DNA from: an uncultured Melioribacter sp.
GTDB lineage: Bacteria > Bacteroidota > Ignavibacteria > Kapaibacteriales > Kapaibacteriaceae
Direction of reading: 5' to 3'
NCBI GenBank assembly: GCA_964484755.1
Contig: CAZAGH010000004.1
Location: forward strand, 28,170-92,169
DNA: 64,000 nucleotides
Of this stretch, positions 11,513 through 54,764 are shown piece by piece (the first letter of the stretch is position 1; each line of letters starts with the position of its first letter). Under the pieces are notes generated by a model. It worked only from the letters and a program-made list of their open reading frames with translations. It had not been told where the DNA came from and made no database searches. The position numbers were made by a program, and so were the translations under genes.

Positions 11513-11572
11513 AAGCGTAGGTTTGTAGGTACGCACAAACATAGTGTAAGAACTCTCGAGGTTGATTCAGGA

Positions 11573-37577: not shown

Positions 37578-37805
37578 GTTTAGGGTGTGGATATCGTCTG
37601 TAACCCTAATTATTGAGAAAAGGTTACCACATATTTCGGTGTTCATATTTCCCTTTGGTGGGAATTCACCGATAACCTATATTTGCGAGTCTATCTCACT
37701 CCGCGGAGTGCGTACCGACGTGTGTACGCATGTTTGCGAGGAATGGACAGCATTGCTTTTTGGTCGTGGAACAGATCCAAGGCCAGTACAGAATTTGAGG
37801 AGTGC

Positions 37806-38519
37806 ATGAGCACACAAGACATAGACAACATCACTGAAGAGCCAGTATCTGCGGGGCCTGACGCCACAGATGCAGCGGCTGACTTCTTTTCAAGACAGTG
37901 GAAAGTTATCGCTGGAGTACTCGGTGTTGTAGTTGTCGTTGTTGCTGGATACTTCTACATGGAGTACCAAAACAGCGAGTTGAACATCGAGGGCCTTACA
38001 CACCTCTCACGTGTGAGGCTTGCCTATGACATGGGCCAATACGACATGGCGCTCACTGGACAAGGTTTGCCACCTATGGATGGTCAGCCTGTGAAGGGGC
38101 TTGTTGCAATCAGCGATGAGTACTCTGGAACAGCAGCTGGCGAGATGGCGGCGTTAATGGCAGGCAATGCCTACATCAACCTTGGCAAAGCTTCAGAGGC
38201 TACCACACAGTTTGAAAAGGCCTCATCTTCAGATGCTGGTGTTGTTCAAGTTGGTGCCTTGCAAGGACTTGCGGCGGCGCTCGAACTTGGTAAGAACTTC
38301 TCTGAAGCTGCTTCCAAGTACGAAGAAGCTGCGAAAAAGGCAGAGGACACAGGTCTGGAAGAGCAGTGCTACCTCAGCGCGGCAGCGTGTTACGAGGAAG
38401 CCAACAACAAGGATAAGGCGTCAGAATTGTACCGATTGATCGTGAAGAAGTTCGAAATGTCAGAGGTTGCGGCATCCGCAAAATCGGGTCTGGCGCGTCT
38501 TGGCACGGCAATTGATTAG
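37806..38519 (+). CDS. membrane-anchored TPR-like protein (YfgM-like architecture)
   Basis: ORF 37683..38519. ATG at 37806 lies 3 nt after GAGGAG. Acidic N-terminus, a single TM 'WKVIAGVLGVVVVVVAGYFYM', then an Ala-rich helical-repeat ectodomain ('AGEMAALMAGNAYINLGKASEATTQFEKA', 'ALQGLAAALELGKNFSEAASKYEEAAKKA'). Confidence 0.6.
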   Translation: MSTQDIDNITEEPVSAGPDATDAAADFFSRQWKVIAGVLGVVVVVVAGYFYMEYQNSELNIEGLTHLSRVRLAYDMGQYDMALTGQGLPPMDGQPVKGLVAISDEYSGTAAGEMAALMAGNAYINLGKASEATTQFEKASSSDAGVVQVGALQGLAAALELGKNFSEAASKYEEAAKKAEDTGLEEQCYLSAAACYEEANNKDKASELYRLIVKKFEMSEVAASAKSGLARLGTAID

Positions 38520-38609
38520 CAAAATCGGGCGGTTTCGCCATTTTTCTGTTTAGAGTAAATGAAAAGCGTGAAAAAATTAAAGTATAAGGTTTTTACAACT
38601 GGAGGTTGT

Positions 38610-41600
38610 ATGCAACGTTGGTTTCGTCTGAGCAGCTTGCTGCTTGTGCTAACCGCGGCATTTAACGTAGCCCAAGCGGCGTACGTTGAAGTCCGTGGTA
38701 GTCTTCCTCCGGGTGCGGTTCGCGTATTCGTACGTGATACCGTATATCGTATTAGTGGCACGTACACCGTTGGTGGTACGCTTCTGATCGAGCCCGGAAC
38801 AACAGTTGAGTTTATGCCAAACGGTCGTTTGGTTGACTCAACAGGTGGTCGAATCATTGCTGATGGTCGTGCGTCTGCGACGTACAATCCAACAGCGGTG
38901 AATCCACTGGTTCCGCCGTACACTGGTTATGACGACTTGTCATACTTCGGTGCTGCGGGAGTCGTCTCTTCGACGATCTCAACAGAACCTACGATTCACC
39001 CATCGAAGTATTCGACGATCTTTAACGTCGATCTTGGCACGAATGTCAACCTCCAAGGTTTGACACCTGCCCAGGCAATCATGTACAAGGCATCACGCCT
39101 TGAACTCGGATCGGTCATTTCGGCCATCCGTTTGAACCCATGGTTCCGCCCGACAGGTGCTGCTATCAACGTTACACCTGCTCGAATCACATTCAAGGCA
39201 GGTGACGTTAACACGTTCTCACGCGAGTGGGGCCACATCGTGGTTCTGCCGGGTGCACGTGCAGCGTTCTTCCGTGATGTTGACTTTGTCAACTTCCGCA
39301 AGGACACAACAGTAGATAACCGTCCTGTTTACCTTGCGAACAGCAATGGTCAAGCCTTCACGGCAGCGCAAGCAGAAACAGCGAACAATACGCTGCTTGA
39401 TGCAACAAACGGTGGTGGTGGTGCAATCACAACATTCTCGTCACGTACGTGGATTGTTGGATGTAACTTCCGCAACAACATGTCGCGTTATCGTGGTGGT
39501 GCTATCCAGATTCTACAAGCGCCATCTGACATCTATGCTGGAACAGCTCTTCAATTGTACCCGACAGTATCGGCTGCTACAATCAACGCTCTTCCAACAT
39601 ACCCAGCAACGGTCAACCCATTCATGACCGATCCGGTAACGGGTGCTCCAATCGCTTCAGGTCTTAGGATCACAGACTATGTATATGATGCTAACCCAGA
39701 GACAATGACAGATGCAGATCGTCAATCACTTGACGATGCTCGTCTTGCTCTTTACCTTGGTCGTATCCGTCAGTCACGATTCACCGGCAATCATGTATTG
39801 CTTGCAAATGTTGATACGGTCCGCGTAGGCGGTATCCGTGTTGTTACAGATGTAGCTGATCGTCCAGCTACGGTATTCGCGAACACGAATCGTTCACAGA
39901 AGAACGAAGCGTTCGGTGGAGCTATCTACGTTTCGGGTCGTACACCAATGATCGTCGGTATCGGTGTCAACGATTTCCAAGGCAAGGATACGATGGAGTT
40001 CAACAGCAACTATGTTGAAAACCGTCAACCAGCTACACCAAACGGTAATGCGGTATCGCAAGGTGCACGCGGTGGTGCCGTTTATGTTGGCAACCAGACA
40101 AGCGTAATCTTCGCAGGTCGCTACACAACAAACAAGACAGAGACACCATTTATCACAACACTCGCTTCGTCAGGTGCCGCTTCTGTTGGCAACTTCTCGA
40201 AGGGTGGAGCTATCTATGCATCAACGGGTGCATGGCAGATCCAAGTTCGTGGTAATCTTGACAATAACCCACCTACACACTTCCTTGGTAATAGCTCAGG
40301 ACGTGGTGGTGCTATCTTCGTTGAGAACGGTACAAACGACAACGCTGTATCACCTTGGATCGGTGGTTCAGACGGAATCATTACTGTCCGCAACTATGGT
40401 TTCAACATCAAGTTCCGCGACAACCGCGCAACAGTAGATGGTGGTGCTATCTACACAGCACGTAACATGTACATGTATGGTGCTGGTGGTTCATCGGGTC
40501 CACTTTGGATCTATGGCACGAACTATGGTGTAGAGTTCCAAAACAACACAGCCAACTTCTCGGGTGGTGCTATCAGCGTTCAGATTCCACAGAATCTTCC
40601 GATCGCTCGTCGCACACTCCGCTTTGTTCGTGGTCACTTCCTCAATAACCGTGTTGGCCAAGTAGCTGCAAGCCTTACTGGCGAAGTCCGCGGTGGTGGT
40701 GCTCTTTATACGATCAATGCAGACCTTAACGTAGTTAAGGGTGTTGAATTCCGTGCTAACAAGGTATGGAACGGTAATGGTGGTGCTATCGCTGTTGTCA
40801 CACCAGATACGCTTACACGTAAGCGCTTTATGGTTACAGACATGGACGATATCAACTTTGATGGTAACGGTGTAGCTACGGGTTACAACCCACGTAACGA
40901 CATCTTCACGTTCCAAACAGCTTCACCTCGTCCAGACGAGCGCATGCTTACACGTTTCTATGAAAACGAAGCATACGCAAACGCAGATCGTCAAGGTTCA
41001 GGCGCTACACAGCGTGGCGACATCAAGATCACACACCCAGGAACAACACTCCGTGAAAACGGTACAGGTCTTGGTGGTGCTCTTTACATCCTCGATAGCA
41101 TCCGCGTTCGTGTTGACACGTTCTCATTTGATCGTGTACGTATGCAGAACAACGTTGCTTTCAGCGGCGCTGGTATGTACTCAGACAATTATGATCTCAA
41201 GCTTGCTATGGCTCGTTGCTTGATTACAGGCAACAAGGCAACATCGACTATCGGTCGTACGCAAGATGTAGTAGATGGTCCATTGGTTGGCTCAGCAAAT
41301 CCTGCTTCAAGCGACCTTGCTGGTGCAGTATTGTTTGGTGAAGTTACTGGTCCTCTTCCATGGAAGACATACAGCAACGCATCAAACTCGATCTACGATA
41401 ACGATGCTCGCTATATCGTACGCCTTCCAGATGCACAAGACACCAAGGGTGTTCTAGCAGGAACAACTGGTATCGGTTTTGGTGGTGTCGATACTCTCCG
41501 TGGCAACTATTGGGGTCGCACCGAAGCGAACGTTAACACGATCCTTCCAAGCACACCTAACACATCTTCATTTGGTCGTGTTCAGGAAACATTCTTCATC

Positions 41601-44600
41601 GCTGGCAACGGTAAGACGCACATGCGTTTTGTTCGCCAGGGTGGTACAAACCCTACAGAACAAGGACCATTCGAATCAGACTGGCGTTATAACTATACTC
41701 CAGTTCCGATCGGTGTAGTTCCAGACACGCTCCTTCTTGCTGGTCGTATCTATGACATCTTCGATAAGGGTACAGACATCAAGACAGCTGATTATTCAAG
41801 CCGTCGCATGTCTCCTATTGAAGACTTCGCAGTAGGTATCCCTCCAACACTCAAGCTTTACAACGATCCTACGCAGCCATCATACGAGAAGTATGTGAAG
41901 CGCATGACTCGTAACCCGTTCGATGCTGACGTACATGCAGATATCGCAGCGGTTCAAACAGAGTTTGTTGGAAACCACCCTATTGGTTACCCAGTATTCC
42001 TTGAAGCACGTGTTGATTACAGTGGTACTGCCGAAGTAAGCAACAACGATGCACGCGCATTTAACGAGACAGTATTCTTCGTTGTTAACGAGCGCACAGG
42101 TGACTTCATCCGCGTTAACATGCAGCAGAAGACGTTGACAGACTCGATCTTCCGTTCACGTGTTGAACTCGTTCCAGATTCATCTAATGGCGGTGATCCT
42201 AACATCCGTCGTGCATATGAAGGTCTCGCAACGTATGGTACAGGCGCGACACTGTTGTCGTTCCTTGCTGACAATGCTATTGCAGAAGATTCATCAGCTC
42301 TTCAAGGTCGTCGTTGGGAAGGCTCAACACAACTTGGCGAACTTGGTGGTGCAAACTTCCGCCTCGGTAATCGTCCAGCGCTTCCTGTATCAAATAACGG
42401 CAGCGAAACATATTATGGCGGTGAGCGTTATCGCGCACTTCCTGTCCGTGATGGTGACCAAGTCACGATCGTTTCTCGTACGATTCTCTGGAAAGATGGC
42501 GTAGTTGAAGCTATCAAGGGTGCATTGAGTTTCACAGTTGGCAACAACACGAACCCACCTGTGTTTACTGGTTCAGCAGATACGCTTCCAACCTCGCCGC
42601 TTCTCCACCCAGAATACCGTAACCGTGTATTTGTTACAGAGAACCGTCTCTACACGCCTATCACTGCAGCTCAGTCACCACGTGGTGGCGGTCAGCCAAG
42701 CTGGTTCAACGAGCCACCTAGCTATCCATCAGACATCAACAACCAGCCAATCCCTGGTCGTGATCTCTTCGAGCGTGATTCGATCTTCTCGATCACAGCA
42801 GTAGATATCAACAAGTTCTATGATCCACGCGTAGTGCGTAATGCTGGCGACAATGCTCAGCTGTCATATTTCTGGGATATCAAGACTGGTAACAGTGGTC
42901 TTCGCTACTGGTTGCGTGATACGCTGATCCGCGCGAATGCTACGAACAACAACCCAAGCTGGGGTGCAGTCGGCTATCGTATGTTCCGTGGTCGTCCAAT
43001 CAATCCATACATCGTTCCAGGTGGTGAATTGGTTGAAGTGGTTGCCAAGAACTTCCCACCATCAGTTGAACTTGTTGACTCGCTTCGTAAGTCAAACTGG
43101 ACAGACGCAGACATCAGCCGCTGGATCTACACGTATCCATCGTACTTCCACGCACAGGAATACGACAACGATGCTATCCCAGCAGGTCAGCGCAATCCAT
43201 CTAACACGAATGCTCGCTTCTTGCAGCAGGACACAGTTAACTTCGGTTGGTTGGATTCAGTATCATATCAGTTCCGTATCCATGTTGTAGACTCGATGCC
43301 ACGCTTCATCTGGCGTCACAATGCAACGGGTGCAGCAGCTGTAACGTATCAAAACATGCTTCGTGGTGATGTAACGATTGTTCTCGATCCAACAACAACT
43401 GATCCAGATGCATACGATGCAACTACAGGTACATACCGTGATACACTGCGTTACACAACGACAACATCACGTGTAGGCCGCCGTTTCGTCGATACGCGTA
43501 CTAACCCGAATAACATTCTTAATGAAGAGTACAACAACCCTAACACGAACTACAACGATTCGTTGAACATTCACTGGGTTGCAAATCTTGCTGGTCTTCC
43601 AGGTCAAGACTCCCTTCGTTTCCGTGCTGACATCAATACAGACGATGAATTTGAAGATGCAGCAGCAGCTGATGCTAACCGCGCAGTTGTTAAGAAGTTC
43701 GGTGCATGGGACTTCCGCTATGGTAAGACAGCCTACGGTTTCGTTTCTACAGCCGTACGTGAAAACCCATCTGAGACTGTACTTGATAACATCGTACAAG
43801 CTCGTCCGAGCTGGATGGCTACACGTTACATGCGTCAGTACGAGAACCCAGGTCAACAGAGTTTGTTTGGTGCTGACTTCACAACGAAGGGTCAGATCGA
43901 CATTCGTATCGATCGTGCAAATGCACTCGAGCTCCTCAAGCCAGTTAATGACTTCGATCCAGGTAACCCAATCAATGGTGATCTGAACGTCGATACAGTC
44001 ATGACGGTTATCGTAAACGATGGTCACGGTGGCGTGAATACACTCACCCGTCGTCTCTTCGTTAACGTTCAGCCACGTCTGCTTGAAGCCAACCTCGAAG
44101 ATGCAATCGAAGACACAGACTATAATGTACAGTTGACGGATTCAGCACGTCGCATCAAGGTTTACGATCCTAACTTCGGTCAGGTTCAAAACTTCGAACT
44201 CATCTATGTAGATGAGCAGCGTGACAGTATCGCAGTTGACCCATACTTTACAGAAGCTGGTCAGATTGTATTTGATGCATCACGCAAGACAACTCCAGCA
44301 TGGTTGAAGATCAATCCAACAAGCGGTCTGCTTTACGGTAAGCCAACAGTTACAGATCTTCCATACTCAGACACAACAGTAAACGTGACGGTTCTGGTTA
44401 CTGATGCAGGTGGTCTTCGTGACATCCGCACATATACACTGAACGTTCGTGCAGTGAATCACAAGCCAAACCTACTCCAGTCACCAATTATTCGTTGTGT
44501 TGAAGCTGGCAAGGAATACACAGATAAGATCCGTGTGACAGACATTGATCTCAAGCGTAAGCAAGCAGGTAACGAAGAGCTGACATTCACAGTTCTTGAG

Positions 44601-45644
44601 CCAGCAGGTTCATGGACATTTGCACCAGCTAAGCTTTCTAGCCCAATTGCTGATACTCAAGAGGTTACTGTAAGTACATCAAACCTCCAGGGAACTATCG
44701 AAAACGGCCGCATCAAGGTCCGTATCGAAGTAACAGATCGTCAAGGTGAAAAGGATACTCTCACGTATTCAGTAGCGGTATCAGCACAAACACGTTTCTC
44801 AGCGGACATCCGCATCGAGAACGCAATCGGTGGATGGCAGACGCTCACATTCGGTGTCAGCGGAACAGAGATTGCGACACGCGGTGACGAAGCAGCTACT
44901 TTCGGTCGTCTTGATAGCAACTACTGCGAATATGAATTGCCTCCAGTACCATTCATCGATGTATTCGATGCCCGCTGGACAATCCCAACACGCAATGGTA
45001 TCATCCGTAACATCCATCCATATTCAAACACAGCCGGTGAGTCGATCTTCCAAGGTCGCTTCCAAGCTGGTGGTGAAAATGGCGTAAGCTCATCGTACTA
45101 CCCAGTCAAGCTTTCATGGTGCCGTACTCAGATCCCAGCACGTGATGCATCGAACCCAGGTTCATATTACATCCGTGATGACCAGTCAAATGGTGGTCTC
45201 TTTGCCTTCGACATGAAGACAGGCCAAGGCCGTTCGATCTCTTCTGTACAACACCGTGTCTCAGCTGCTGGCGATTGCGATACACTCGTTATCACGTCAA
45301 CCGCAATCGAAGGTTTCATCATTGTGTACGACTTCACAACAGATGTCGAAAACGGTGAAGAAGCTCCATCATCGCTTGCTATCACAGCAACAGCACCAAA
45401 TCCATTCACGACATCAACAAATATCAGCTTCGCTGTTCCGACACCGTCGATGGTAGCAGTTGAGATCTACGATGCAATTGGAAATCGCGTTGCTACTCTG
45501 ACAAATGATGTGTACAACGCCGGTATTCATTCAGTAGAATGGAATGGCGCTGCAAACGGTGTTGCACTTCCGAACGGTATCTACACGGTTCGTGTATCGG
45601 ACGGAACAAACTCGACTTCACAGCAGGTCGTACTCGTACGCTAA
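38610..45644 (+). CDS. giant (2344 aa) secreted adhesin-like protein: Pmp-type parallel beta-helix repeats, two cadherin-like/He_PIG Ig modules, T9SS C-terminal sorting domain
   Basis: ORF 38559..45644. ATG at 38610 lies 4 nt after GGAGG. Signal peptide MQRWFRLSSLLLVLTAAFNVA|QA. At least 10 GGA[ILV] motifs paired with FxxN (see the repeat feature). Ig module: 'TPAWLKINPTSGLLYGKPTVTDL..VTVLVTDAGGLRDIRTYTLNVRAVNHKP'. Tail: 'APNPFTTSTNISFAVPTPSMVAVEIYDAIGNRVATL...LPNGIYTVRVSDGTNSTSQQVVLVR'. Confidence 0.85.
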   Translation: MQRWFRLSSLLLVLTAAFNVAQAAYVEVRGSLPPGAVRVFVRDTVYRISGTYTVGGTLLIEPGTTVEFMPNGRLVDSTGGRIIADGRASATYNPTAVNPLVPPYTGYDDLSYFGAAGVVSSTISTEPTIHPSKYSTIFNVDLGTNVNLQGLTPAQAIMYKASRLELGSVISAIRLNPWFRPTGAAINVTPARITFKAGDVNTFSREWGHIVVLPGARAAFFRDVDFVNFRKDTTVDNRPVYLANSNGQAFTAAQAETANNTLLDATNGGGGAITTFSSRTWIVGCNFRNNMSRYRGGAIQILQAPSDIYAGTALQLYPTVSAATINALPTYPATVNPFMTDPVTGAPIASGLRITDYVYDANPETMTDADRQSLDDARLALYLGRIRQSRFTGNHVLLANVDTVRVGGIRVVTDVADRPATVFANTNRSQKNEAFGGAIYVSGRTPMIVGIGVNDFQGKDTMEFNSNYVENRQPATPNGNAVSQGARGGAVYVGNQTSVIFAGRYTTNKTETPFITTLASSGAASVGNFSKGGAIYASTGAWQIQVRGNLDNNPPTHFLGNSSGRGGAIFVENGTNDNAVSPWIGGSDGIITVRNYGFNIKFRDNRATVDGGAIYTARNMYMYGAGGSSGPLWIYGTNYGVEFQNNTANFSGGAISVQIPQNLPIARRTLRFVRGHFLNNRVGQVAASLTGEVRGGGALYTINADLNVVKGVEFRANKVWNGNGGAIAVVTPDTLTRKRFMVTDMDDINFDGNGVATGYNPRNDIFTFQTASPRPDERMLTRFYENEAYANADRQGSGATQRGDIKITHPGTTLRENGTGLGGALYILDSIRVRVDTFSFDRVRMQNNVAFSGAGMYSDNYDLKLAMARCLITGNKATSTIGRTQDVVDGPLVGSANPASSDLAGAVLFGEVTGPLPWKTYSNASNSIYDNDARYIVRLPDAQDTKGVLAGTTGIGFGGVDTLRGNYWGRTEANVNTILPSTPNTSSFGRVQETFFIAGNGKTHMRFVRQGGTNPTEQGPFESDWRYNYTPVPIGVVPDTLLLAGRIYDIFDKGTDIKTADYSSRRMSPIEDFAVGIPPTLKLYNDPTQPSYEKYVKRMTRNPFDADVHADIAAVQTEFVGNHPIGYPVFLEARVDYSGTAEVSNNDARAFNETVFFVVNERTGDFIRVNMQQKTLTDSIFRSRVELVPDSSNGGDPNIRRAYEGLATYGTGATLLSFLADNAIAEDSSALQGRRWEGSTQLGELGGANFRLGNRPALPVSNNGSETYYGGERYRALPVRDGDQVTIVSRTILWKDGVVEAIKGALSFTVGNNTNPPVFTGSADTLPTSPLLHPEYRNRVFVTENRLYTPITAAQSPRGGGQPSWFNEPPSYPSDINNQPIPGRDLFERDSIFSITAVDINKFYDPRVVRNAGDNAQLSYFWDIKTGNSGLRYWLRDTLIRANATNNNPSWGAVGYRMFRGRPINPYIVPGGELVEVVAKNFPPSVELVDSLRKSNWTDADISRWIYTYPSYFHAQEYDNDAIPAGQRNPSNTNARFLQQDTVNFGWLDSVSYQFRIHVVDSMPRFIWRHNATGAAAVTYQNMLRGDVTIVLDPTTTDPDAYDATTGTYRDTLRYTTTTSRVGRRFVDTRTNPNNILNEEYNNPNTNYNDSLNIHWVANLAGLPGQDSLRFRADINTDDEFEDAAAADANRAVVKKFGAWDFRYGKTAYGFVSTAVRENPSETVLDNIVQARPSWMATRYMRQYENPGQQSLFGADFTTKGQIDIRIDRANALELLKPVNDFDPGNPINGDLNVDTVMTVIVNDGHGGVNTLTRRLFVNVQPRLLEANLEDAIEDTDYNVQLTDSARRIKVYDPNFGQVQNFELIYVDEQRDSIAVDPYFTEAGQIVFDASRKTTPAWLKINPTSGLLYGKPTVTDLPYSDTTVNVTVLVTDAGGLRDIRTYTLNVRAVNHKPNLLQSPIIRCVEAGKEYTDKIRVTDIDLKRKQAGNEELTFTVLEPAGSWTFAPAKLSSPIADTQEVTVSTSNLQGTIENGRIKVRIEVTDRQGEKDTLTYSVAVSAQTRFSADIRIENAIGGWQTLTFGVSGTEIATRGDEAATFGRLDSNYCEYELPPVPFIDVFDARWTIPTRNGIIRNIHPYSNTAGESIFQGRFQAGGENGVSSSYYPVKLSWCRTQIPARDASNPGSYYIRDDQSNGGLFAFDMKTGQGRSISSVQHRVSAAGDCDTLVITSTAIEGFIIVYDFTTDVENGEEAPSSLAITATAPNPFTTSTNISFAVPTPSMVAVEIYDAIGNRVATLTNDVYNAGIHSVEWNGAANGVALPNGIYTVRVSDGTNSTSQQVVLVR
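39411..41190 (+). repeat. polymorphic-membrane-protein (Pmp)-type repeat region, GGA[ILV] / FxxN
   Basis: GGA[ILV] motifs: GGAITTF, GGAIQIL, GGAIYVS, GGAVYVG, GGAIYAS, GGAIFVE, GGAIYTA, GGAISVQ, GGALYTI, GGAIAVV, GGALYIL. They are interleaved with FRNN, FTGN, FNSN, FLGN, FRDN, FQNN, FLNN and FRAN. The 12-mer GGTGGTGCTATC occurs exactly at least 5 times (near 39494, 40305, 40440, 40563 and 40779). Confidence 0.8.
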
Positions 45645-45657
45645 ACGCTTATCTACA

Positions 45658-45685
45658 GGGCCGGTTTTCGGACCGGCCCTTGTTT
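45658..45685 (+). terminator. rho-independent terminator after the giant adhesin gene
   Basis: GGGCCGGT-TTTCGG-ACCGGCCC stem-loop (45658-45679), followed by TTGTTTG, 14 nt after the stop. Confidence 0.7.
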
Positions 45686-45724
45686 GAAACCGATTAAAAA
45701 AACACTGAAACTTTTGGAGTATTT

Positions 45725-47764
45725 ATGAAGAAACAGGTATTGATTGCCTCGGCGATTGTACTCTGTTCATTCGCGATCGGTGCAGTAGAGGGCGTGGCAC
45801 AGCAGATCTTTAATCAGTTCCGCCAGCCAAAGCTCGTAGTCGGTCTCCCATATAGGGATATCGATGCCTGCCCTACGTCGAGCCTGAACAAGACAGTTAT
45901 AGCTCCGTCGCAATTCACATTGCCGCCAACATTCGTGAATGATTTGGATGATGGTTATTCGTACATCCAGTTCCCGAATGGAATCACCTATAACTACAAC
46001 GGCCGCGTTTATAGCGGTGTGTATGTAAGTATCAACGGTTTCTTGACATTTGATAACACTAAGCTGGTTCCTGCAAAGCAGTCAATCGGTTTGTTTATCA
46101 ACTCGTCTTCATATCCTGATAACGTTGTTTCTCCATATTGGGGAGATCACCGTTACCGTACAGCGACAGACATCGCACAGGGCTTCATGCCGTCGCAGAT
46201 CTCTTGGGTTATTGATGTAGATCGTGATGAAAATTGCGATACAATCAAGCCTGTTCGTCGCTGCGTTATCGTTCAGTGGAAGAACCTTAACATCAATGAT
46301 GCTAGCATCAATTCCAGCGTTGGCAACTTCCAAGCACGCCTGTATCTGGGTGGCGCAGAGAAGAACAACCAAGGTGAAGTTGAATTTGCTTATGGTCAAG
46401 TTGGTGGAAATCCTTATACCAACAACACAACCGTCGTAACGCGCGGTGCAACAGTTGGTATCAAGGGTGACGGTGGCTTCCCTGGATTTTTGTCAGACTT
46501 CTGGAATGGTTTGATCTGGCAACCAAATGCTGGTTCAAACAGTCGTACGGACTCTACATCGGTTTGGCAGCCATCAGGTGGCCGCTCAGATGCCCGCATT
46601 CGCTTTGAGTCGATTGTTTATCTGACGTTTAGCGACTGGGGTTACGGTGATGCCGATACTTCTGGTGCAGCAGCAGAGCGTCATGCAGATCTTCCTCAGA
46701 ATCGTCGTGTAACAGTAAACGATGCGCGCACAATCATGCGTTCAATCGTTACACGCGTGCCACTTGATTCAGTATGGAAGCGTCAAGCATACCTTGCAGA
46801 TGTTAACCACAGTGGTCGTTACTACTACACGAAGCTCAAGAGAGATTTCTCTGGAGACTCAACTGTTGGAAATCAGATCATCATTTGGCGTCGTACAATC
46901 GACGTAGAACAATTCTTCCCAGGTCAGGGCGTTGGCCCGAACACTGGTAAGCAAGTTGTCCGCGTCATGTTTGAAGGCGATGGTCTCTATGGTGTTGACG
47001 GTAAGGCACCAGATGTTAGCAATCTCAACCAGATTTACTATGAGTGCAATGAATATGACGCAGGTCTCATCATGCGTTATATCTCAGGTCGTCTGCCATA
47101 CCTCCCATGGATCTATGACAACGATACACTCGGACCAGATTTTGGTAAGGTTGTTGAAGTACGTGAAGCTTCTAACGTAAAGTTTGGCTCACCGTCATCT
47201 ATCGGTAACGGTCTCGTTCGTGTACCAGTATACCTTAACGGCTTCCACAAGGGTGCAATTGGTGTGAGCTTCAGCACAGACGCGGAAGTGGTAGATGTTG
47301 TAAAGGCAAGCAATAGCGTTCTTGTTGATGCTTCCAAGGATGTTGTAGCTATCGCAGGTAATGGCGTTTTTGAAGCTGGTCAACCAGTTGCGTTTGTTAC
47401 CATGAAGGAATCAGCTATCGTAAAGATCTCTGACGTCCGTTTCAACGATGCAATTGCTCCTGGGCACACGATCAACATGATCGAATCCGACAATGCTTCA
47501 ATCGCTGTTTATCCTAATCCAGTATCATCGTCAATGAACCTTGCGTTCAATGTTGTAGAAGCTGGTACGGTTAACGTTTCCGTCTTTGATGCATTTGGCA
47601 AGCTTGTTGCTAACGTCGCTACAGAAAACGTAACTCCAGGTACATTCAGTGCTAATTGGGACGGAACAGATGTTAACGGCAATGCCGTAGCAGCTGGATC
47701 GTATCTTGTACGTATCGAAGGTGCCGGATTGAGCGCTTCGCAGATGTTCACGGTTGTCCGTTAA
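45725..47764 (+). CDS. secreted T9SS-sorted protein with NIDO-like, dockerin-like and cohesin-like segments
   Basis: 679 aa. GGAG lies upstream of the ATG. Signal peptide MKKQVLIASAIVLCSFAIGAVEGVA|QQ. NIDO-like: 'YNYNGRVYSGVYVSINGFLTFD...VVSPYWGDH'. Ca-loop-like 'GDADTSG' and 'ADVNHSG' with helices 'VNDARTIMRSIV' and 'EYDAGLIMRYISG'. Cohesin-like: 'LVRVPVYLNGFHKGAIGVSFSTDAEVVDVV'. Tail: 'IAVYPNPVSSSMNLAF..VSVFDAFGKLV...GSYLVRIEGAGLSASQMFTVVR' (47501-47761). Confidence 0.75.
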   Translation: MKKQVLIASAIVLCSFAIGAVEGVAQQIFNQFRQPKLVVGLPYRDIDACPTSSLNKTVIAPSQFTLPPTFVNDLDDGYSYIQFPNGITYNYNGRVYSGVYVSINGFLTFDNTKLVPAKQSIGLFINSSSYPDNVVSPYWGDHRYRTATDIAQGFMPSQISWVIDVDRDENCDTIKPVRRCVIVQWKNLNINDASINSSVGNFQARLYLGGAEKNNQGEVEFAYGQVGGNPYTNNTTVVTRGATVGIKGDGGFPGFLSDFWNGLIWQPNAGSNSRTDSTSVWQPSGGRSDARIRFESIVYLTFSDWGYGDADTSGAAAERHADLPQNRRVTVNDARTIMRSIVTRVPLDSVWKRQAYLADVNHSGRYYYTKLKRDFSGDSTVGNQIIIWRRTIDVEQFFPGQGVGPNTGKQVVRVMFEGDGLYGVDGKAPDVSNLNQIYYECNEYDAGLIMRYISGRLPYLPWIYDNDTLGPDFGKVVEVREASNVKFGSPSSIGNGLVRVPVYLNGFHKGAIGVSFSTDAEVVDVVKASNSVLVDASKDVVAIAGNGVFEAGQPVAFVTMKESAIVKISDVRFNDAIAPGHTINMIESDNASIAVYPNPVSSSMNLAFNVVEAGTVNVSVFDAFGKLVANVATENVTPGTFSANWDGTDVNGNAVAAGSYLVRIEGAGLSASQMFTVVR

Positions 47765-47779
47765 CAACTGCCGCTAAGA

Positions 47780-48910
47780 ATGAAATATTTGTTGTTAGTT
47801 GTGCTGGCCGTCTCTACGGCGGCCAGCACTCTGGCAGCAGCAGACACACTCTACATTCGGTCTTATCAAATAGTAGATGTGTGTTCGAATGATCGGCGTT
47901 GGCTGCTAGCCGTAGACCTTGGTAGAGTGCTTCCAAGCGACAGCCTAGTGTCCTTTGACATTACAATAGGATATGATCGAACAAAGCTTCGGCCAACCGA
48001 CGTTTTAAAAGAAGGGACGTTATCGGCAGGAATGTCCTACGCTCCTTTCCTCAACACAGTTGTGCCAAACGAGATGCGTATCGCAGGTGGTAACATCATC
48101 AAGACTGTTAGTGGAACGGAACCGTTAGTAGCTGTTACAGGCGACTTTCTTGGCGACTGCAACGATGTTGACACATTGGGTTATCCTTGGCCAGCTACGT
48201 TTAACTCGGAATTCAAGAAAAGGCTGACCGTTATACGCCGAGATAGTGTAATAGCAACAGCGAAAGCGAAGCAGAATCCAGAGTCTGGTATGTATGCTTT
48301 GGAACGTATCGTAACAGTCGGCCCAGACGAAAACACCTTCGAACTAAAGGTGAAGGGGGCTAAACTGAAATCCGATAGTTCACTACACCGCTTTACATTT
48401 ACAAGCTCAAAGGCGACTATGGATGTGGTTCAAGTTGGCGGGGTGAAGGGTATCACAGATGTTGATACGACTACATCAGACGAGGACATTGTTGTTACAG
48501 GTCGAGTTGTAGATGCCAGCCCAGAGTTTCTGGTAAGGTATAGAGTACAGAAAGACAATAGGCCCGATTCTGTTACAATCACGTTGCGTACAGAGAATCT
48601 TTCTGAGTGTAATTGTTCGAATCCGGCATTGCGCGACACAGTCGATATCAAGATCAGTCCTACTGTAAGTGTACCATCTTTTGATGAACACGTTGAAATT
48701 GTACAAATACACAACGATGTAGTTACTATTCAATGTGACCATGAAGAGATGAAAACGATACAGATCTTTTCAACGTACGGGCAGCTTGTACAAGCAACTG
48801 TTCTCTCTGCGGGAGATAAATCTGTATCAACATCGAATCTGGCCAACGGTAGTTTTTTTGTAAGAACCACCTGCGGCAAACGACAACACGTTAACATGAT
48901 TTTGAAATGA
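47780..48910 (+). CDS. secreted T9SS-sorted protein with an N-terminal cohesin-like module
   Basis: 376 aa. Signal peptide MKYLLLVVLAVSTAASTLAAA. 'RWLLAVDLGRVLPSDSLVSFDITIGYDRTKLRPTDVLKEGTL' fits the cohesin strand pattern. Tail: 'IQIFSTYGQLVQATVLSAGDKSVSTSNLANGSFFVRTTCGKRQHVNMILK'. Its codon usage differs from its neighbours (uses CGG, AGA, AGG, ATA). Confidence 0.7.
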   Translation: MKYLLLVVLAVSTAASTLAAADTLYIRSYQIVDVCSNDRRWLLAVDLGRVLPSDSLVSFDITIGYDRTKLRPTDVLKEGTLSAGMSYAPFLNTVVPNEMRIAGGNIIKTVSGTEPLVAVTGDFLGDCNDVDTLGYPWPATFNSEFKKRLTVIRRDSVIATAKAKQNPESGMYALERIVTVGPDENTFELKVKGAKLKSDSSLHRFTFTSSKATMDVVQVGGVKGITDVDTTTSDEDIVVTGRVVDASPEFLVRYRVQKDNRPDSVTITLRTENLSECNCSNPALRDTVDIKISPTVSVPSFDEHVEIVQIHNDVVTIQCDHEEMKTIQIFSTYGQLVQATVLSAGDKSVSTSNLANGSFFVRTTCGKRQHVNMILK

Positions 48911-48945
48911 ACAAACATCTGATCAACTCATCTGAGGAGTGTATT

Positions 48946-51900
48946 ATGAATCGTCGTTATGCTCTATGGGGCGGCGGTACCGCAATTGGTGCCGTACTCC
49001 TCCTTGCAGCATTAATCGGCATCGGTTCGACTGTGCTCATGGCACAGACGAACAAGCCTGAGCTGCCAACGCTCTCGTTAACTGGAGACGGAGCAAGTTG
49101 GAAAAGGGAAGTTTATCCTGATGGTCGTATCTGGTCATCAAGCCGCGGTCCCAATGGCGACCGTATGCTCCTCGTTCCAGTCTTCATCAAGAACTGCTGG
49201 CGCACAACGTCGCAGTACGAAGCTTTCCCTATTTACAGCTTCAAGTTCAAGGTACAGTACGATAGTTCTGCACTTGAATATGTTGGTGTAGAGAAGAATG
49301 GCCCACTTCGTGGACCACAATTGACACCGGTATCGTGCTTGGCGAAGGATTTTGAATTCACATCGCACGTAGCACGCGACGTTACTTTCCAGAGCGTTAT
49401 CAATGCTCCAACGCAAAACCGTCTGCGTGGTAAGCGCGTTCTCGTTACTGGTACGTCTTCAAAGGCACTTCCACAAACGGGTGATGTCACGCAGCCATGT
49501 GATCAGCGTCCATACGTAGAGCTTGTGTATTTGCGTTTCAAGGTTGTAGCTAACCCAGCTATCGATCCGGTAAGCTCACGTACACCTGTTATCCTCACGA
49601 ACGACACGTTGTTCTACAACGACTTCCAAGTTGGTAAGGAAATTGTATTCCCTGGTGATGTTGCTCCAGGTGAATTTGCAGGTCTTGGTGGTGTAGACAA
49701 CTACTTCCTCGACAACAACGGTCTCGAGCAGATCCGTGATCCACTTCGTCCATCAAAGCCAGGTATGATCTGGGTTGAAATCACGGATGCTACTCCACGT
49801 TTGTCATTCACAAACGTTGCTAACCCAGCTTTCCGTCTTGTTGACTCAGTAGATCAATCGAATGGTTCACAGTGGTACGTTGTAGATCCTATCACGGTTG
49901 ATTACCAAACACCATACGAAGATCAAGTAAACGGTATCGGTACACGTGACGTTGACGTTATCAATGCTAACGCCGGTACTCGCGCTTACGAGATCATGGT
50001 TCAATCTGATTCAAAGTGGCTCAAGTTCAAGTCGTTTCTCAAGGGTGGCGGCGGACAAACAGAATTGAATCCATTCCCGAATCCAGTACGTGAAGGTTAT
50101 ATCCAGTTTATGGATAAGGCCATCTTGGGCGCTATCGGCGATCCTCTTGGCAATCCTACGACTGGTCAGCGTGACTTGAACCTCCGCATCATTTGCGATC
50201 CAAACGAGCTTCCTAACGGTGATGAGCAAGAAGTTTGTGGTACGTATGTTGGTTACCTGACATTCAAGTCAGCTTCCCTCGAAGTACCTAACGTTCGCCT
50301 CAAGGTTACGTTCATCTACTTCCGTTCACCATATGAGCCAAACGTATTTGACGAGAACGACAACTGGAAGCGCAGCCAAGAGTTCCTTGGTCGTGGTATC
50401 ACACTTCAGGTTCGTAACTCTAACGTTCCAAACGATATCACATACATGGTCTTCGGTGTAGGTAACCGCGCTACAGACGCATGTGATACACTGTTTGGTG
50501 AAACAATCTATCCAAACGCACTGACTTCATTTGGTGCTCGTTGGTATCCAAAGAACGCTGATGGCTCATTCATCTACCAGAACGGTCTTGGAGACCTGTG
50601 GGCAGCTACAGCGCAACGTCCAAAGTCATCTTCACGTGATATTCGTTCTATCTACAGCGACACGACACTGGCTTACACATGCCGTTTCGACGCAGGTGGC
50701 GACATCAACTATCCAATCGTAGTTGCATGGGATACAGATGAGTTCTCACCAGGTTCAGAGCTCTTCATCCGCGACACACTGAACGGTTCACGCTTTAACA
50801 TCAACATGCGTGCCGGTACAGTTCTCGGTGGTACACGTCAGTCATACACAATTCGTGATGCCGACATCAAGGCGTTCGTTATTGAGTACACACTTCCAAA
50901 GGTTGCTCGCTTCCCAGTTATCAACAAGGGATGGAACCTCCTTTCAGTACCTGTAAACCCGTCGTCAAGCTACTGGCGTGATGTGTTCAAGAATGCCTTG
51001 AACATCCCTATTCGCTTTGCCCAGAACCTTTATCAGAACAACGAAACAAACCTCGCTCCAGGCGTTGGCTACTTCGTGAAGTACTCTGACGATGTAGATA
51101 AGACGATCGCTGGTTCACGCATCCGCGCGATCAACGAAGGCAGCTTCCCTACACGTCTCTATGATGGTTGGAACACAATTGGCTCACTTTCATTCCCAAC
51201 TTCAACACAGAATGTTAGCGTTACTGTCTTCGGTAACTCAGGCACATTCCCAGAGATCGTTGGCGACATCTATGGTTATGTAACTAACCGTGGTTATCAG
51301 GCAGTTACAGAGATCGAACCAGGTCTCGGATACTGGATGAAGGTTAAGGGTCAAGCTTACCTCAACATCGCTTCTGGTAAGGGTAGCATCAACAGCGCAG
51401 TTGTTCGTGAAAACGTTGAATCAAACGCAACACGTGTAACTGTAAGCGATGCAGAAAACAATGTTGGTACAGTATTCGTAGCAGCAAAGGGGCTTGTTGA
51501 CAACAAGATGATGTTCGAATTGCCACCAACGCCTCCAAACAATCTCTTCGACGTACGTTTCACAAGCCAAACGAGCGTAGAAGATGAAGCTAACCCAACG
51601 ATCCAGATCCAGGGTGTAACGTTCCCAGTAACGGTTGCGATCAACAATCCTAACCAGAATTACACGATCGTTAACCCAATCTCGGGTGCTGTTCTCGGCA
51701 CTGCTATCGCTGGCCGCGTGAACTCTGTAACAATCTCAGATGCACGTACACCGTACATCCGTCTGATGGGTCAGGAAGCAAATGTTGAAACACTCAGCGT
51801 AGTTGCTACACCAAACCCAGTTTCAGCAAACGGTGTTGTCAATGTTACAGTACCAGCTAACGGTCAAGTAACAGTCGGTCTCTATGATGCAGTTGGTACA

Positions 51901-52047
51901 CTGGTATCAACTCTCATGGATGAAGTAAAGACATCAGGTGTTTACGGTGTTGATCTCAATGCTGCAAACCTCGCACAAGGTCGTTACATCATCAAGGCCA
52001 CAGTTAATGGCGTTACAGCAACAACTGCAGTAACAGTCGTCCGCTAA
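48946..52047 (+). CDS. large (1033 aa) secreted T9SS-sorted protein with an N-terminal cohesin-like module
   Basis: ORF 48907..52047. ATG at 48946 lies 6 nt after GAGGAG. Signal peptide 'MNRRYALWGGGTAIGAVLLLAALIGIGSTVLMA|Q'. 'RMLLVPVFIKNCW...FPIYSFKFKVQYDSSALEYVGVEKNG'. Later, a 'GWNLLSVPVNP...PGVGYFVKY...GWNTIGSL...PGLGYWMKV' module. Tail: 'ATPNPVSANGVVNV..VGLYDAVGTLV...GRYIIKATVNGVTATTAVTVVR' (51793-52044). Confidence 0.75.
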   Translation: MNRRYALWGGGTAIGAVLLLAALIGIGSTVLMAQTNKPELPTLSLTGDGASWKREVYPDGRIWSSSRGPNGDRMLLVPVFIKNCWRTTSQYEAFPIYSFKFKVQYDSSALEYVGVEKNGPLRGPQLTPVSCLAKDFEFTSHVARDVTFQSVINAPTQNRLRGKRVLVTGTSSKALPQTGDVTQPCDQRPYVELVYLRFKVVANPAIDPVSSRTPVILTNDTLFYNDFQVGKEIVFPGDVAPGEFAGLGGVDNYFLDNNGLEQIRDPLRPSKPGMIWVEITDATPRLSFTNVANPAFRLVDSVDQSNGSQWYVVDPITVDYQTPYEDQVNGIGTRDVDVINANAGTRAYEIMVQSDSKWLKFKSFLKGGGGQTELNPFPNPVREGYIQFMDKAILGAIGDPLGNPTTGQRDLNLRIICDPNELPNGDEQEVCGTYVGYLTFKSASLEVPNVRLKVTFIYFRSPYEPNVFDENDNWKRSQEFLGRGITLQVRNSNVPNDITYMVFGVGNRATDACDTLFGETIYPNALTSFGARWYPKNADGSFIYQNGLGDLWAATAQRPKSSSRDIRSIYSDTTLAYTCRFDAGGDINYPIVVAWDTDEFSPGSELFIRDTLNGSRFNINMRAGTVLGGTRQSYTIRDADIKAFVIEYTLPKVARFPVINKGWNLLSVPVNPSSSYWRDVFKNALNIPIRFAQNLYQNNETNLAPGVGYFVKYSDDVDKTIAGSRIRAINEGSFPTRLYDGWNTIGSLSFPTSTQNVSVTVFGNSGTFPEIVGDIYGYVTNRGYQAVTEIEPGLGYWMKVKGQAYLNIASGKGSINSAVVRENVESNATRVTVSDAENNVGTVFVAAKGLVDNKMMFELPPTPPNNLFDVRFTSQTSVEDEANPTIQIQGVTFPVTVAINNPNQNYTIVNPISGAVLGTAIAGRVNSVTISDARTPYIRLMGQEANVETLSVVATPNPVSANGVVNVTVPANGQVTVGLYDAVGTLVSTLMDEVKTSGVYGVDLNAANLAQGRYIIKATVNGVTATTAVTVVR

Positions 52048-52070
52048 GCCTTATCGTCGAAAACAAAGAA

Positions 52071-52098
52071 GGGCAGCAGATTTCTGCTGCCCTTTTTT
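52071..52098 (+). terminator. strong rho-independent terminator
   Basis: GGGCAGCAG-ATTT-CTGCTGCCC stem-loop (52071-52092), followed by TTTTTT (52093-52098), 24 nt after the stop. Confidence 0.9.
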
Positions 52099-52120
52099 AT
52101 TCATAGAAGGATTGATTGCT

Positions 52121-52885
52121 ATGAAACATGTTCTCACCCTGCTCCTGATGTGTTCATTTGTTGCGAGAGCACAACAGGTGGAGATACCGATTGCTATTGC
52201 GAATACGGTGAATGATCAGACAAAGACAGCCGTTCTGACGGTTGCGGCACATCCCAAGGGAACGAACGAACTTGATACTGCTTTAGGAGAGCGTGAGATT
52301 CCTACTCTTCCTCCGCCAGCAGGCGTGTTCATTGCCTATACCATTCCTCCGAGTGCAGAGTATTTGTGGTTAAGCCCCTTAGACGTGCGAAAACTTGAAG
52401 TAGGTAAGCAACACCTCGTTGAGTACACAATTGGAATGACGTGGAACGCCGGCAAACTGGATGTTTCGTGGGGACCTATTCCGAATCTCGTGGACTCTGC
52501 ATATCTCGTTGATGTGGTTTCGGACTTTCCCGACAACTTTATCAAAGTCAAGCTCGAGCCCAATAAGACGTATTCAACCATAAACACAGCAATAACCAAG
52601 CTCAAACTCTTGGTTTGGTACAATGCTACATCGCTTAACGTCGCAGAGGATGCATCATCATTACGCTTGTATCCTGTGCCGTTTGACGAAGAGCTCATTG
52701 TTGAAGGGGCCAGTATTGGCTCAATTTTCAACGTGGTAGATGTTTCTGGTTCCGTAATTTTTACCGGTACCATAGACCAACAGCGACAGATAATTCGCAC
52801 AGCTGAGTTGCCAACTGGAATGTACGCGTTGCAATTGCGGAATCACGACGGCTCTGTCGTAACAAGAAAACTTCTACGCCGATAA
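52121..52885 (+). CDS. small secreted T9SS-sorted protein
   Basis: ORF 52112..52885, ATG at 52121. Signal peptide MKHVLTLLLMCSFVARA|QQ. Tail: 'LRLYPVPFDEELIVEG..FNVVDVSGSVIFTG...PTGMYALQLRNHDGSVVTRKLLRR' (52661-52882). Confidence 0.7.
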   Translation: MKHVLTLLLMCSFVARAQQVEIPIAIANTVNDQTKTAVLTVAAHPKGTNELDTALGEREIPTLPPPAGVFIAYTIPPSAEYLWLSPLDVRKLEVGKQHLVEYTIGMTWNAGKLDVSWGPIPNLVDSAYLVDVVSDFPDNFIKVKLEPNKTYSTINTAITKLKLLVWYNATSLNVAEDASSLRLYPVPFDEELIVEGASIGSIFNVVDVSGSVIFTGTIDQQRQIIRTAELPTGMYALQLRNHDGSVVTRKLLRR

Positions 52886-53990: not shown

Positions 53991-54764
53991 ATGAACACTC
54001 AGCGTATCACTCACTTCTTGACCCTTCTTGTAATCTTTGCTGTTGCAGCGTCAACATCAATGGCGCAGGTGCGATTTCGCATAGCCTCGGGATTGTCTAC
54101 CGACTGGATCACGAACGATAATCCTGCCGTGTATGCTCTTACAGGATCAACGGACACTACACAGGCGAACCGTCCTTTTGGCGGTGCGTTCGATGGCGCG
54201 CAAGTTGGCTGGGGACTACGCGGATATGTTGACCTTGATAAGCAGAAGACATTTCGCATTCCGGTTGGCGTTGATGTATTCTACTACAACGGCGCTCAAA
54301 GTGTTGTTGGACCCAACTACAAGTTCCGCGTCGAGCACTCAAACACACTGATCTCATCGTTCACAGGTTTTGAGTGGTCCTTCGTTGAGTTTCCCCTCGC
54401 TTTTGCCAGGGCCTATGTAGGGGGCGAGGCACGCTTTCTTTATGTCAATGCAAACACGATCACGTCTGAAGGCACCAACATCATCAATGGTGAAGCCTTT
54501 AACTACTCGAACTCATTTTCAGGTAAGTCTTCGGCATTTCGCGTAGGTGCGATGGCCCGACTGGGCATCGAAGGCGAGATCTATTATCCTGTGTTTCTGA
54601 ACACAAGTGTTGGATATGGTTTTATGAATCTCTTGGGCCGCGACAACCGATCAAGCGCTCAAGGTGGACGTGGCGAATTGCTAACTGCACGCCCCATCAA
54701 TGAAGCAGGAGAGGGCATGCTGACGCACCTCAACTTTGCATTCATGATTCAGATTCGCATCTGA
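53991..54764 (+). CDS. outer-membrane beta-barrel protein
   Basis: ORF 53937..54764, ATG at 53991. Signal peptide 'MNTQRITHFLTLLVIFAVAASTSMA|Q'. Alternating beta-strand pattern: 'GLRGYVDLD', 'FRIPVGVDVFYY', 'ARFLYVNA', 'FRVGAMARLGIEGEIYY'. Confidence 0.6.
   Translation: MNTQRITHFLTLLVIFAVAASTSMAQVRFRIASGLSTDWITNDNPAVYALTGSTDTTQANRPFGGAFDGAQVGWGLRGYVDLDKQKTFRIPVGVDVFYYNGAQSVVGPNYKFRVEHSNTLISSFTGFEWSFVEFPLAFARAYVGGEARFLYVNANTITSEGTNIINGEAFNYSNSFSGKSSAFRVGAMARLGIEGEIYYPVFLNTSVGYGFMNLLGRDNRSSAQGGRGELLTARPINEAGEGMLTHLNFAFMIQIRI

Follow-up and report, generated by a model that had tools for sequence, protein, structure and literature searches.

The window analyzed here, a stretch of 64,000 nucleotides (nt) from an uncultured Melioribacter sp. 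(GenBank assembly GCA_964484755.1, contig CAZAGH010000004.1, positions 28,170 to 92,169 of the forward strand), contains five consecutive genes, here called A to E, whose products appear to be type IX secretion system (T9SS) cargo. We consider it roughly an even bet (probability about 0.5) that these genes constitute an operon block found throughout the Kapabacteria lineage, and that their five products come together on the cell exterior as a single fixed complex that is non-enzymatic. A more specific version of this proposal can be offered only tentatively. It holds that the block encodes a lineage-defining, enzyme-free surface structure of Kapabacteria (a coat or an adhesion apparatus), held together by an unrecognized dockerin subtype whose conserved loop insertions form an extra subdomain and which plugs into diverged cohesins on neighboring cargo proteins. 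The genes and modules that carry the argument are as follows, with positions counted from the first nucleotide of the window and protein lengths in amino acids (aa).

38610-45644, + strand: gene A, a 2344-aa T9SS cargo protein (Pfam and TIGR04183 matches)
45725-47764, + strand: gene B, a 679-aa T9SS cargo protein (homologues, AlphaFold2 model, TIGR04183)
46637-47107, + strand: split-loop ("stretched") dockerin-like module of B (spliced Pfam Dockerin_1 matches, region profile)
47162-47479, + strand: beta-sandwich of B, a possible cohesin-like module (AlphaFold2, hhalign)
47780-48910, + strand: gene C, a 376-aa, fast-evolving T9SS cargo protein (alignment of 31 orthologues, profile)
48946-52047, + strand: gene D, a 1033-aa T9SS cargo protein (100 homologues, TIGR04183)
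49051-49731, + strand: cohesin-like N-terminal domain of D, aa 36-262 (AlphaFold2 and Foldseek)
52121-52885, + strand: gene E, a 254-aa T9SS cargo protein (hhalign to A, TIGR04183)

A first-pass annotation of this DNA had pointed to five genes with Sec signals, and all five are present at the coordinates it gave, as consecutive open reading frames (ORFs) on the + strand in the ORF list of the window. The start codons at 38610 (A), 48946 (D), and 52121 (E) are consistent with the N termini of orthologues. When the translations are read, each protein is seen to begin with a Sec-type leader that has a positive n-region, a hydrophobic core, and an AxA-type site. T9SS cargo crosses the outer membrane and has its C-terminal sorting domain (CTD) removed, and many cargo proteins become anchored on the cell surface, or the protein is released. 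The tails of A, B, D, and E score 33.4, 32.4, 24.6, and 30.5 bits with TIGR04183, all above the cut-off of 23 bits, and the tail of C falls below it at 19.3 bits. For C, 25 of 31 orthologues match Por_Secre_tail (PF18962), and the family profile retrieves solved T9SS CTDs from the PDB (8glk_D, E value 9.4e-7). The proposal that all five proteins carry type-A tails and are T9SS type-A cargo is thus supported by these sequence matches. Among the scanned ORFs of the window there are no genes for the T9SS machinery (SprA, PorV, PorU, GldKLMN). The possibility that B itself is a PorU/PorZ protein was rejected, because its NCBIfam matches span only the CTD and lie far below the cut-offs.

A dockerin in B would provide the plug of the proposed structure. 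The B protein comprises a NIDO-like N-terminal domain (aa ~60-295), a split-loop dockerin (aa 305-461), a beta-sandwich (aa ~480-585), and the CTD (aa 595-679). Its 230 homologues are all T9SS proteins of metagenome-assembled genomes (MAGs) of Kapabacteria/Ignavibacteria. The motifs GDADTSG, ADVNHSG, and DAxxIMR, which had been taken as signs of a stretched dockerin, are present as quoted, as are three strings in the block with the cohesin strand pattern. In order, the module consists of loop 1 (GDADTSG), a 14-aa insertion, the helix VTVNDARTIMRSIV, a linker, loop 2 (DVNHSGR), an insertion of ~75 aa, and the helix EYDAGLIMRYISGRLP. The ligands of loop 1 are D309, D311, and S313, and the position-12 aspartate (D333) opens the exiting helix. 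Those of loop 2 are D359, N361, and S/N/T363 (followed by G364), with the position-12 residue D445 opening the second helix. Both F-hands end in an amphipathic helix, such that B contains the two tandem F-hand repeats of a dockerin.

Conservation of this region is high. An alignment of orthologues yields the invariant pattern WG.GDAD.S ... H ... Q.R.VT.NDAR.IM.SI ... PLDSV..R.AY..DVNH.GR ... EYDA.LI..Y.S.RLP.LPW. The ligand residues are invariant or near-invariant in 69 B orthologues and in 88 cluster representatives, and loop positions 1 and 12 together with the helix residues are near-invariant in the latter. The insertions split each loop between positions 6/7 and 8 and bring the module to ~157 aa, compared with the usual length of about 60-70. 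The insertion in loop 2 varies in length, from ~12 aa in the remote locus L084 (described below) through ~45 aa in the distant tier of orthologues and ~75 aa in the window up to about 80 aa. Within the insertions, H320, Q325, and W388 are identical in 69/69 orthologues, and R413 and L421 are invariant or nearly so among closer orthologues. Invariant residues at such places imply that the insertions are more than mere spacers.

Standard methods do not recognize the intact module. The native region of B (179 residues) has no Pfam Dockerin_1 (PF00404) match, and its hhalign comparison with three dockerins gives a probability of 2.6%. When the insertions were excised in silico from four divergent B orthologues, the resulting constructs matched Dockerin_1 at 25.1-31.5 bits (E values 2e-7 to 2e-5), above the gathering score of 22.9 bits and across model positions 1/2-56 of 57. 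The spliced version from L084 reached 20.0 bits (E value 8e-4), which is below that score. Because the excision was guided by the hypothesis, a control was run in which 2677 random collinear three-segment splices from A-D were scored against a hidden Markov model (HMM) of only three solved dockerins. The control splices peaked at 9.8 bits and the real constructs scored 13.9-28.0 bits, a result that excludes chance for the spliced matches.

A profile of the dockerin region (B residues 298-476) was also run against 1.84 billion representative proteins. It finds 99 proteins, nearly all with B-type architecture, and three matches from outside the family (P0326, P0327, and P0328). Pfam describes P0327 and P0328 as consisting purely of Dockerin_1 repeats (E values 4e-34 and 3e-59), and both align in register with B over the helix 1-linker-loop 2 segment and over the helix 'QVTSYDAALVMQYLSG'. 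In P0326, also a repeat protein, Pfam sees no dockerin domain. The suggestion of a stretched dockerin was therefore a sound one: with the excised constructs, the splice control, and the two Dockerin_1 proteins taken together, the sequence evidence indicates that B holds a genuine but novel, divergent "split-loop" dockerin that is missed by standard profiles. In the region-profile search this module is almost confined to B-type proteins, with few variants, and is carried by no enzymes. This distribution implies one plug per system and not a tag spread over many enzymes. In P0279 (1772 aa), the split dockerin is located behind choice-of-anchor I and Big_5 domains, and the C-terminal tail has a sub-threshold T9SS sorting match. 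The module may therefore sometimes be shuffled onto another N-terminal head.

A NIDO domain had been suggested for the head of B. NIDO (PF06119) matches occur in 16 of 69 B orthologues but remain sub-threshold (best E value 4.3e-4; P0269 reaches 22.4 bits, where the cut-off is 25), and B of the window has no Pfam NIDO match.

A candidate socket for the plug lies at the N terminus of D. This protein consists of a cohesin-like N-terminal domain, about 600 strongly conserved residues without a recognized family, a motif at aa 856-875, and the CTD (aa 955-1033). In 100 D homologues no Pfam domain is found except the CTD, and the D family profile retrieves no PDB sequence. An AlphaFold2 model of the N-terminal domain (aa 36-262), built on a 73-sequence alignment, has a mean predicted local distance difference test (pLDDT) score of 92.1 and a predicted template modeling (pTM) score of 0.89. 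When this model is compared with the PDB by Foldseek, ranks 1-44 are exclusively cohesins, and the first protein that is not a cohesin appears at rank 45. The matches have E values of 5e-4 to 2e-2, probabilities of 0.87-1.0, and target-normalized template modeling (TM) scores of 0.22-0.57. They include type I and type II cellulosomal cohesins, the archaeal non-cellulosomal module 2xdh, and cohesin-like modules of C. perfringens. With its insertions the D domain spans ~225 aa, about 85 residues more than a cohesin (~140 aa), and this excess length explains the modest scores. As modeled, the N-terminal domain of D is cohesin-like in fold.

Three cohesin-like modules had been proposed in the block, and the predicted fold upholds the one in D. 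For the other two, the N-terminal domain of C and the beta-sandwich of B, a cohesin-like nature is only suggestive. The C protein is composed of an N-terminal domain (aa ~22-170, nt 47843-48289), a middle domain with a CxC motif, and the CTD (aa ~312-376). In the 31-orthologue alignment its N-terminal domain bears the cohesin-like strand motif DSLxSFDITIGYD..L.P, and hhalign aligns it in register with the D domain at 20-29% probability (4-29% over all comparisons of this domain). The counterpart of C in L084 reaches 14.9 bits with Pfam Cohesin (E value 0.03, model positions 3-113 of 139), where the cut-off is 24.1 bits. The sandwich of B (aa 480-585) is all-beta in the AlphaFold2 model (pLDDT about 82) and contains 'LVRVPVYLNG..GAIGVSFSTDAEVVDVV'. 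It aligns in register with three CipA cohesins at 37% probability (p value 4e-4), the reference being a thin three-sequence cohesin alignment. Overall, comparisons of the three modules with CipA and with each other give 0.2-37%, in register and non-significant. A Foldseek search with the whole, uncropped B model places no cohesin in the top 50, but generic tandem immunoglobulin (Ig) matches dominate it to the point that it says little about the sandwich. In C, Cys35, Cys127, and Cys277-x-Cys279 are invariant despite fast evolution (16-73% identity among orthologues), a pattern that suggests disulfides or a metal site.

Proteins A and E share another domain, the core motif of which also occurs in D. 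The A protein begins with its signal peptide, continues with a Pmp-repeat (GGAI) beta-helix region, a He_PIG Ig domain (aa 1886-1946), and a domain preceding the CTD, and ends with the CTD (aa 2263-2341). Pfam identifies Chlam_PMP (PF02415) at 34.3 bits (cut-off 20.6), He_PIG, and FlgD_ig, and Chlam_PMP is found in 13/13 A orthologues. The GGAI-type repeats would fit an adhesin built as a parallel beta-helix. The domain before the CTD of A, with the pattern 'ELPPxP..FDxRW', covers aa ~2050-2262 (nt 44757-45395). Gene E encodes a stand-alone copy of this domain (aa 18-182), with a CTD behind it (aa 183-254); hhalign matches the E domain to A aa 2050-2262 over 144 columns at 97.5% probability (E value 5e-12). 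The motif 'FELPPTPPNNLFDVRF' at aa 856-875 of D corresponds to the core motif of the same domain (FELPPxPP..FDVRF; hhalign 95.8%). A orthologues of the closer tier show 63-97% identity, those of the distant tier about 40-47%. The A proteins of the distant tier (loci such as L001, L053, and L062, with forms of 2660-2760 aa) are about 320 aa longer and bear an inserted PSII_BNR/Sortilin-Vps10 beta-propeller (best Pfam E value 8.7e-36) that is absent from A of the window.

The block has been maintained as a unit over a great evolutionary distance. Synteny was examined with one genome per GTDB species, and the best 80 of 202 stretches encoding B relatives gave 79 distinct loci. The order E1 dehydrogenase, TPR (tetratricopeptide repeat) gene, A, B, C, D, E, GT2 (glycosyltransferase family 2) gene, and a further gene of unknown function is kept in 79/79 loci wherever the contig reaches, over a range of B identities from 93% down to 33%. 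The five genes had been expected to co-occur in relatives if the idea of a complex was correct, and they clearly do so in all 79 loci. The only sources of B and D homologues are MAGs labeled Kapabacteria/Kapaibacterium or 'Ignavibacteria' and obviously mislabeled bins; Kapaibacterium is placed in Bacteroidota by NCBI. Many MAGs with the block (L006, L010, L021, L025, L052, L079, and others) are labeled Patescibacteria, Didemnitutus, Chitinophaga pinensis, Hyphomicrobiales, Desulfobulbaceae, or Chloroflexota, which are probably mislabels.

The most distant example was reached through a profile search with the D domain against an index of 5.8 billion proteins, which returned only 11 fragments, one of which led to L084 (ENA ERZ25039529 contig_13287, 1-13978). 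This locus keeps the TPR-A-B-C-D-E order, although A, B, and D are only 26-28% identical to those of the window. Its proteins are the TPR protein and products of 2125, 645, 256, 382+608, and 291 aa; the D homologue lies in two ORFs, owing to a frameshift or an assembly error. Three IgGFc_binding/CTD proteins come next in L084 on the opposite strand.

The five proteins have not evolved at the same rate. At 80-87% identity of the housekeeping E1 dehydrogenase, A, B, and D still share 63-77%. At L011, for example, the identities are 75, 72, and 72% for A, B, and D and 86% for the dehydrogenase, and 38 and 46% for C and E. Thus, C and E are fast-evolving, and A, B, and D are almost housekeeping-like. 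Adhesins do not usually change so slowly, and the low rate suits a structural machine.

The genes and terminator-like hairpins that surround or divide the block are listed next.

37683-38519, + strand: membrane-anchored, YfgM-like TPR protein (Pfam TPR_2/TPR_14/TPR_19; one transmembrane segment in the translation)
45655-45683, + strand: A-B hairpin, terminator-like or attenuator-like, followed by UUGUUUG (folding free energy -20.2 kcal/mol, z -3.5)
52065-52098, + strand: D-E hairpin, strong and intrinsic-terminator-like, followed by a U run (stem of 11-15 bp, folding free energy -24.7 kcal/mol, z -8.0)
52904-53953, + strand: GT2 polyprenyl-phosphate sugar transferase, ArnC/PgfS/AglJ-like, 18 nt 3' of E (Pfam Glycos_transf_2)
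53991-54764, + strand: 257-aa signal-peptide protein resembling an outer-membrane beta-barrel (translation only; alternating beta-strand pattern, hydrophobic C terminus 'FAFMIQIRI')

The TPR protein upstream and the glycosyltransferase island downstream had both been described earlier, and both are seen by Pfam and NCBIfam. Every locus long enough to include it has the TPR gene 5' of A (30-92% identity), and L084 has it too. Downstream of E, the gene order is GT2, an unknown gene, GT2, methyltransferase, and GT4 (glycosyltransferase family 4). The best NCBIfam matches of the first GT2 protein are ArnC-like (E value 6e-64), PgfS, and AglJ, all below their cut-offs, and the gene is syntenic in every locus long enough to include it (56-95% identity). 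These features hint at glycosylation of surface proteins or of the lipopolysaccharide (LPS) anchor. The protein encoded at 53991-54764 matches no Pfam or NCBIfam family and is kept 3' of the GT2 gene in all loci reaching that far (26-83% identity). Judging from its translation, this barrel-like protein could serve the T9SS block as an anchor or a partner. The terminators predicted near 45658 and 52071 correspond to real hairpins of unequal quality. The A-B hairpin is of moderate strength: 0/200 shuffles fold as well, and it does not appear in the list of a consensus terminator scanner. The D-E hairpin is the strong one.

How might the five proteins fit together? In the assembly that we envision, the dockerin of B would bind the cohesin-like domain of D in a Ca2+-dependent manner. 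It may also bind the cohesin candidates in the N terminus of C and in B itself, and binding within B would make this protein an adaptor or a polymerizing subunit. Contact between B and D would tether the NIDO-like head of B, along with other proteins, near the Pmp-type beta-helix protein A. The pre-CTD domain common to A, D, and E may serve as a shared point of anchoring or oligomerization beside the attachment site. The polyprenyl-phosphate glycosyltransferase and the barrel-like protein encoded downstream may modify the complex by glycosylation or provide its anchor. What results would be a surface structure of adhesive or coat-like character, and no cellulosome.

Several findings weigh against such a complex. 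The evidence on the modules of A-E consists of sequence comparisons and monomer models. The Foldseek E value of the D domain is modest (5e-4), its target TM score is about 0.5, and its insertions are large. The cohesin likeness of the C and B modules is not significant (hhalign no higher than 37%). The orthologues scanned (69 of B, 31 of C, and 26 of D), like A-E themselves, give no Pfam Cohesin (PF00963) or Dockerin match at E<=1, NCBIfam shows neither module, and so the direct search proposed for the five native proteins, with Cohesin and Dockerin_1, gave no match. Likewise, the family profiles of A, B, C, and D retrieve only CTD and FlgD-Ig matches when run against PDB sequences. In the AlphaFold2 model of B, pLDDT is below 50 across the dockerin region save for two helices, and the loop insertions could abolish canonical Ca2+ binding or cohesin binding. 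Finally, the flanking housekeeping genes are also syntenic, which indicates that this lineage keeps its gene order generally and makes co-location weak evidence for physical association.

A different explanation, which we regard as rather unlikely, is that the five T9SS surface proteins or adhesins act independently and have no more in common than their location and regulation, with modules that are relics or that bind other ligands (carbohydrates, host or prey surfaces, Ca2+) instead of one another. Modules resembling cohesin sandwiches and dockerin F-hands are widespread beyond the cellulosome, and for many of them no partner is known (Peer et al. 2009, as cited in PMC8542988). The dockerin loops of B are interrupted in a region of which AlphaFold2 is unsure, two terminator-like hairpins divide the block, and its synteny may simply be part of a lineage-wide conservation of order that includes metabolic genes. 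Independence does not readily explain why plug and socket are strictly co-inherited as far back as they can be traced, L084 included, or why A, D, and E have domains in common. Furthermore, the near-invariance of the dockerin helices and Ca2+-ligand positions in the 88 representatives argues for a maintained binding function, and A, B, and D are far more conserved than typical adhesins.

A second alternative is that the proteins form an S-layer-like or coat structure of T9SS cargo, glycosylated via the adjacent glycosyltransferase and held together mainly by Ig-like and beta-helix contacts, with a minor role at most for cohesin and dockerin modules. There is precedent for this type of structure in TfsA/TfsB of Tannerella forsythia, T9SS cargo proteins that form a glycosylated S-layer. 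Strong conservation and presence throughout the lineage speak for a coat, and the ArnC/AglJ/PgfS-like GT2 gene lies 18 nt 3' of E, with more glycosyltransferase genes downstream, but this link is positional only. Foldseek matches of whole B include the archaeal S-layer Ig arrays 7ptu and 7ptp, which are generic matches, and similarity to known S-layer proteins is limited to generic Ig domains. Five different proteins of very unequal size would also be atypical of an S-layer, and we consider this explanation improbable.

A cellulosome was rejected, since the block has no enzymes or carbohydrate-binding modules (CBMs) and no multi-cohesin scaffoldin. Pfam and NCBIfam scans find no enzyme domain in A-E, nor any catalytic domain or CBM in their orthologues, in agreement with the earlier statement that the absence of glycoside hydrolases and other enzymes sets the block apart from cellulosomes. 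A single dockerin per system, the slow evolution of A, B, and D, and the absence of the split dockerin from enzymes favor a structural complex over a cellulosome-like recruitment platform.

Comparison with known systems helps define what is distinctive about the proposed complex. Its modules are remote relatives or variants of the cohesin and dockerin families, which the B dockerin joins by profile once its insertions are excised and the D domain by its predicted fold. The top fold match of the D model is the clostridial type I cohesin-dockerin system (C. thermocellum CipA with Xyn10B/CelD; 1ohz, 2ccl, 1aoh). As in clostridial dockerins, B has duplicated F-hands in a loop-helix-linker-loop-helix arrangement with conserved Ca2+-ligand positions. 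Unlike clostridial modules, both dockerin loops of B are interrupted, the D cohesin is enlarged, and similarity of the native sequences lies below Pfam detection. The block also differs from clostridial cellulosomes in having neither enzymes nor a multi-cohesin scaffoldin, and in its Gram-negative T9SS export and CTD anchoring in place of anchoring by S-layer homology (SLH) domains or sortase.

Protein A resembles chlamydial Pmp proteins in its GGAI-type repeats, which exceed the Pfam cut-off. These proteins are autotransporters with a C-terminal barrel, whereas A lacks such a barrel, has a T9SS CTD at its end, and bears He_PIG and further domains. Large, repetitive CTD cargo proteins that are encoded in clustered genes and retained on the surface are exemplified by the Flavobacterium adhesins SprB and RemA and by Tannerella TfsA/TfsB. 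To our knowledge, cohesin and dockerin modules do not occur in either of these systems. The block has no detectable homology to SprB, RemA, or TfsA/B, with RemA/RemZ appearing only as CTD matches. A system of the SprB/SprF type was therefore rejected, there being no homology, no PorP/SprF match, and no recognized partner of the PorP/SprF type.

Non-cellulosomal cohesin-like and dockerin-like modules have been reported from every domain of life (Peer et al. 2009, cited in PMC8542988), and two such groups are represented among the D fold matches, namely Archaeoglobus fulgidus 2xdh and the Clostridium perfringens toxin-complex modules 2jh2 and 2vo8. Modules of this kind are detectable by standard profiles and mostly reside on enzymes or toxins, whereas those of the block belong to a dedicated, enzyme-free, five-gene T9SS operon. 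The closest parallel in export is 'Ca. Stygibacter' of the Cloacimonadota, where a cohesin protein with a T9SS CTD is proposed to anchor dockerin partners at the surface (PMC8542988). In this degradative system, the scaffoldin is 3755 aa in length with tandem canonical cohesins and CBMs, and dockerins are found on a chitinase, an amylase, and peptidases (PMC8542988). The two systems have in common a host from the Fibrobacteres-Chlorobi-Bacteroidetes (FCB) group and a cohesin protein with a T9SS CTD; in contrast to 'Ca. Stygibacter', the block lacks catalytic domains, has only one dockerin, and carries its divergent modules singly. Given these precedents for non-cellulosomal modules and for a T9SS-CTD cohesin scaffoldin (PMC8542988), the suggestion that the block represents a new use of cohesins and dockerins was overstated. 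In the collection of papers searched, none links T9SS cargo of Kapabacteria to cohesin or dockerin modules. The novelty lies in the interrupted-loop dockerin, in the extreme degree to which the modules have diverged, in the lack of enzymes, and in the strict conservation of the five genes as an operon across the lineage.

Elsewhere in the window, two paralogous arylsulfotransferase (ASST)-like proteins are encoded on opposite strands (4270-6765, - strand, and 8519-10498, + strand), one of which has an extra Kre9/KNH-like Ig domain. In addition, a 1038-aa ORF at 21997-25113 (+ strand) has no Pfam or NCBIfam match at E<=1e-5.

The detection of the B module carries a lesson in method, because cutting the insertions out of a domain suspected of being interrupted converted a hunch based on motifs into an above-threshold profile match. 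Since standard profiles miss the split-loop dockerin, other modules of this kind may be hidden in databases. If the modules of the block do bind each other, cohesin-dockerin assembly would reach beyond polysaccharide degradation in Firmicutes to the construction of T9SS cargo structures on a Gram-negative outer membrane. If the more specific proposal of a coat or adhesion apparatus is correct, cohesins and dockerins would amount to a "construction kit" for envelope architecture in a Gram-negative phylum. A concrete role can now be proposed for large, highly conserved "hypothetical T9SS proteins" that seem to mark a lineage which is widespread though uncultured.

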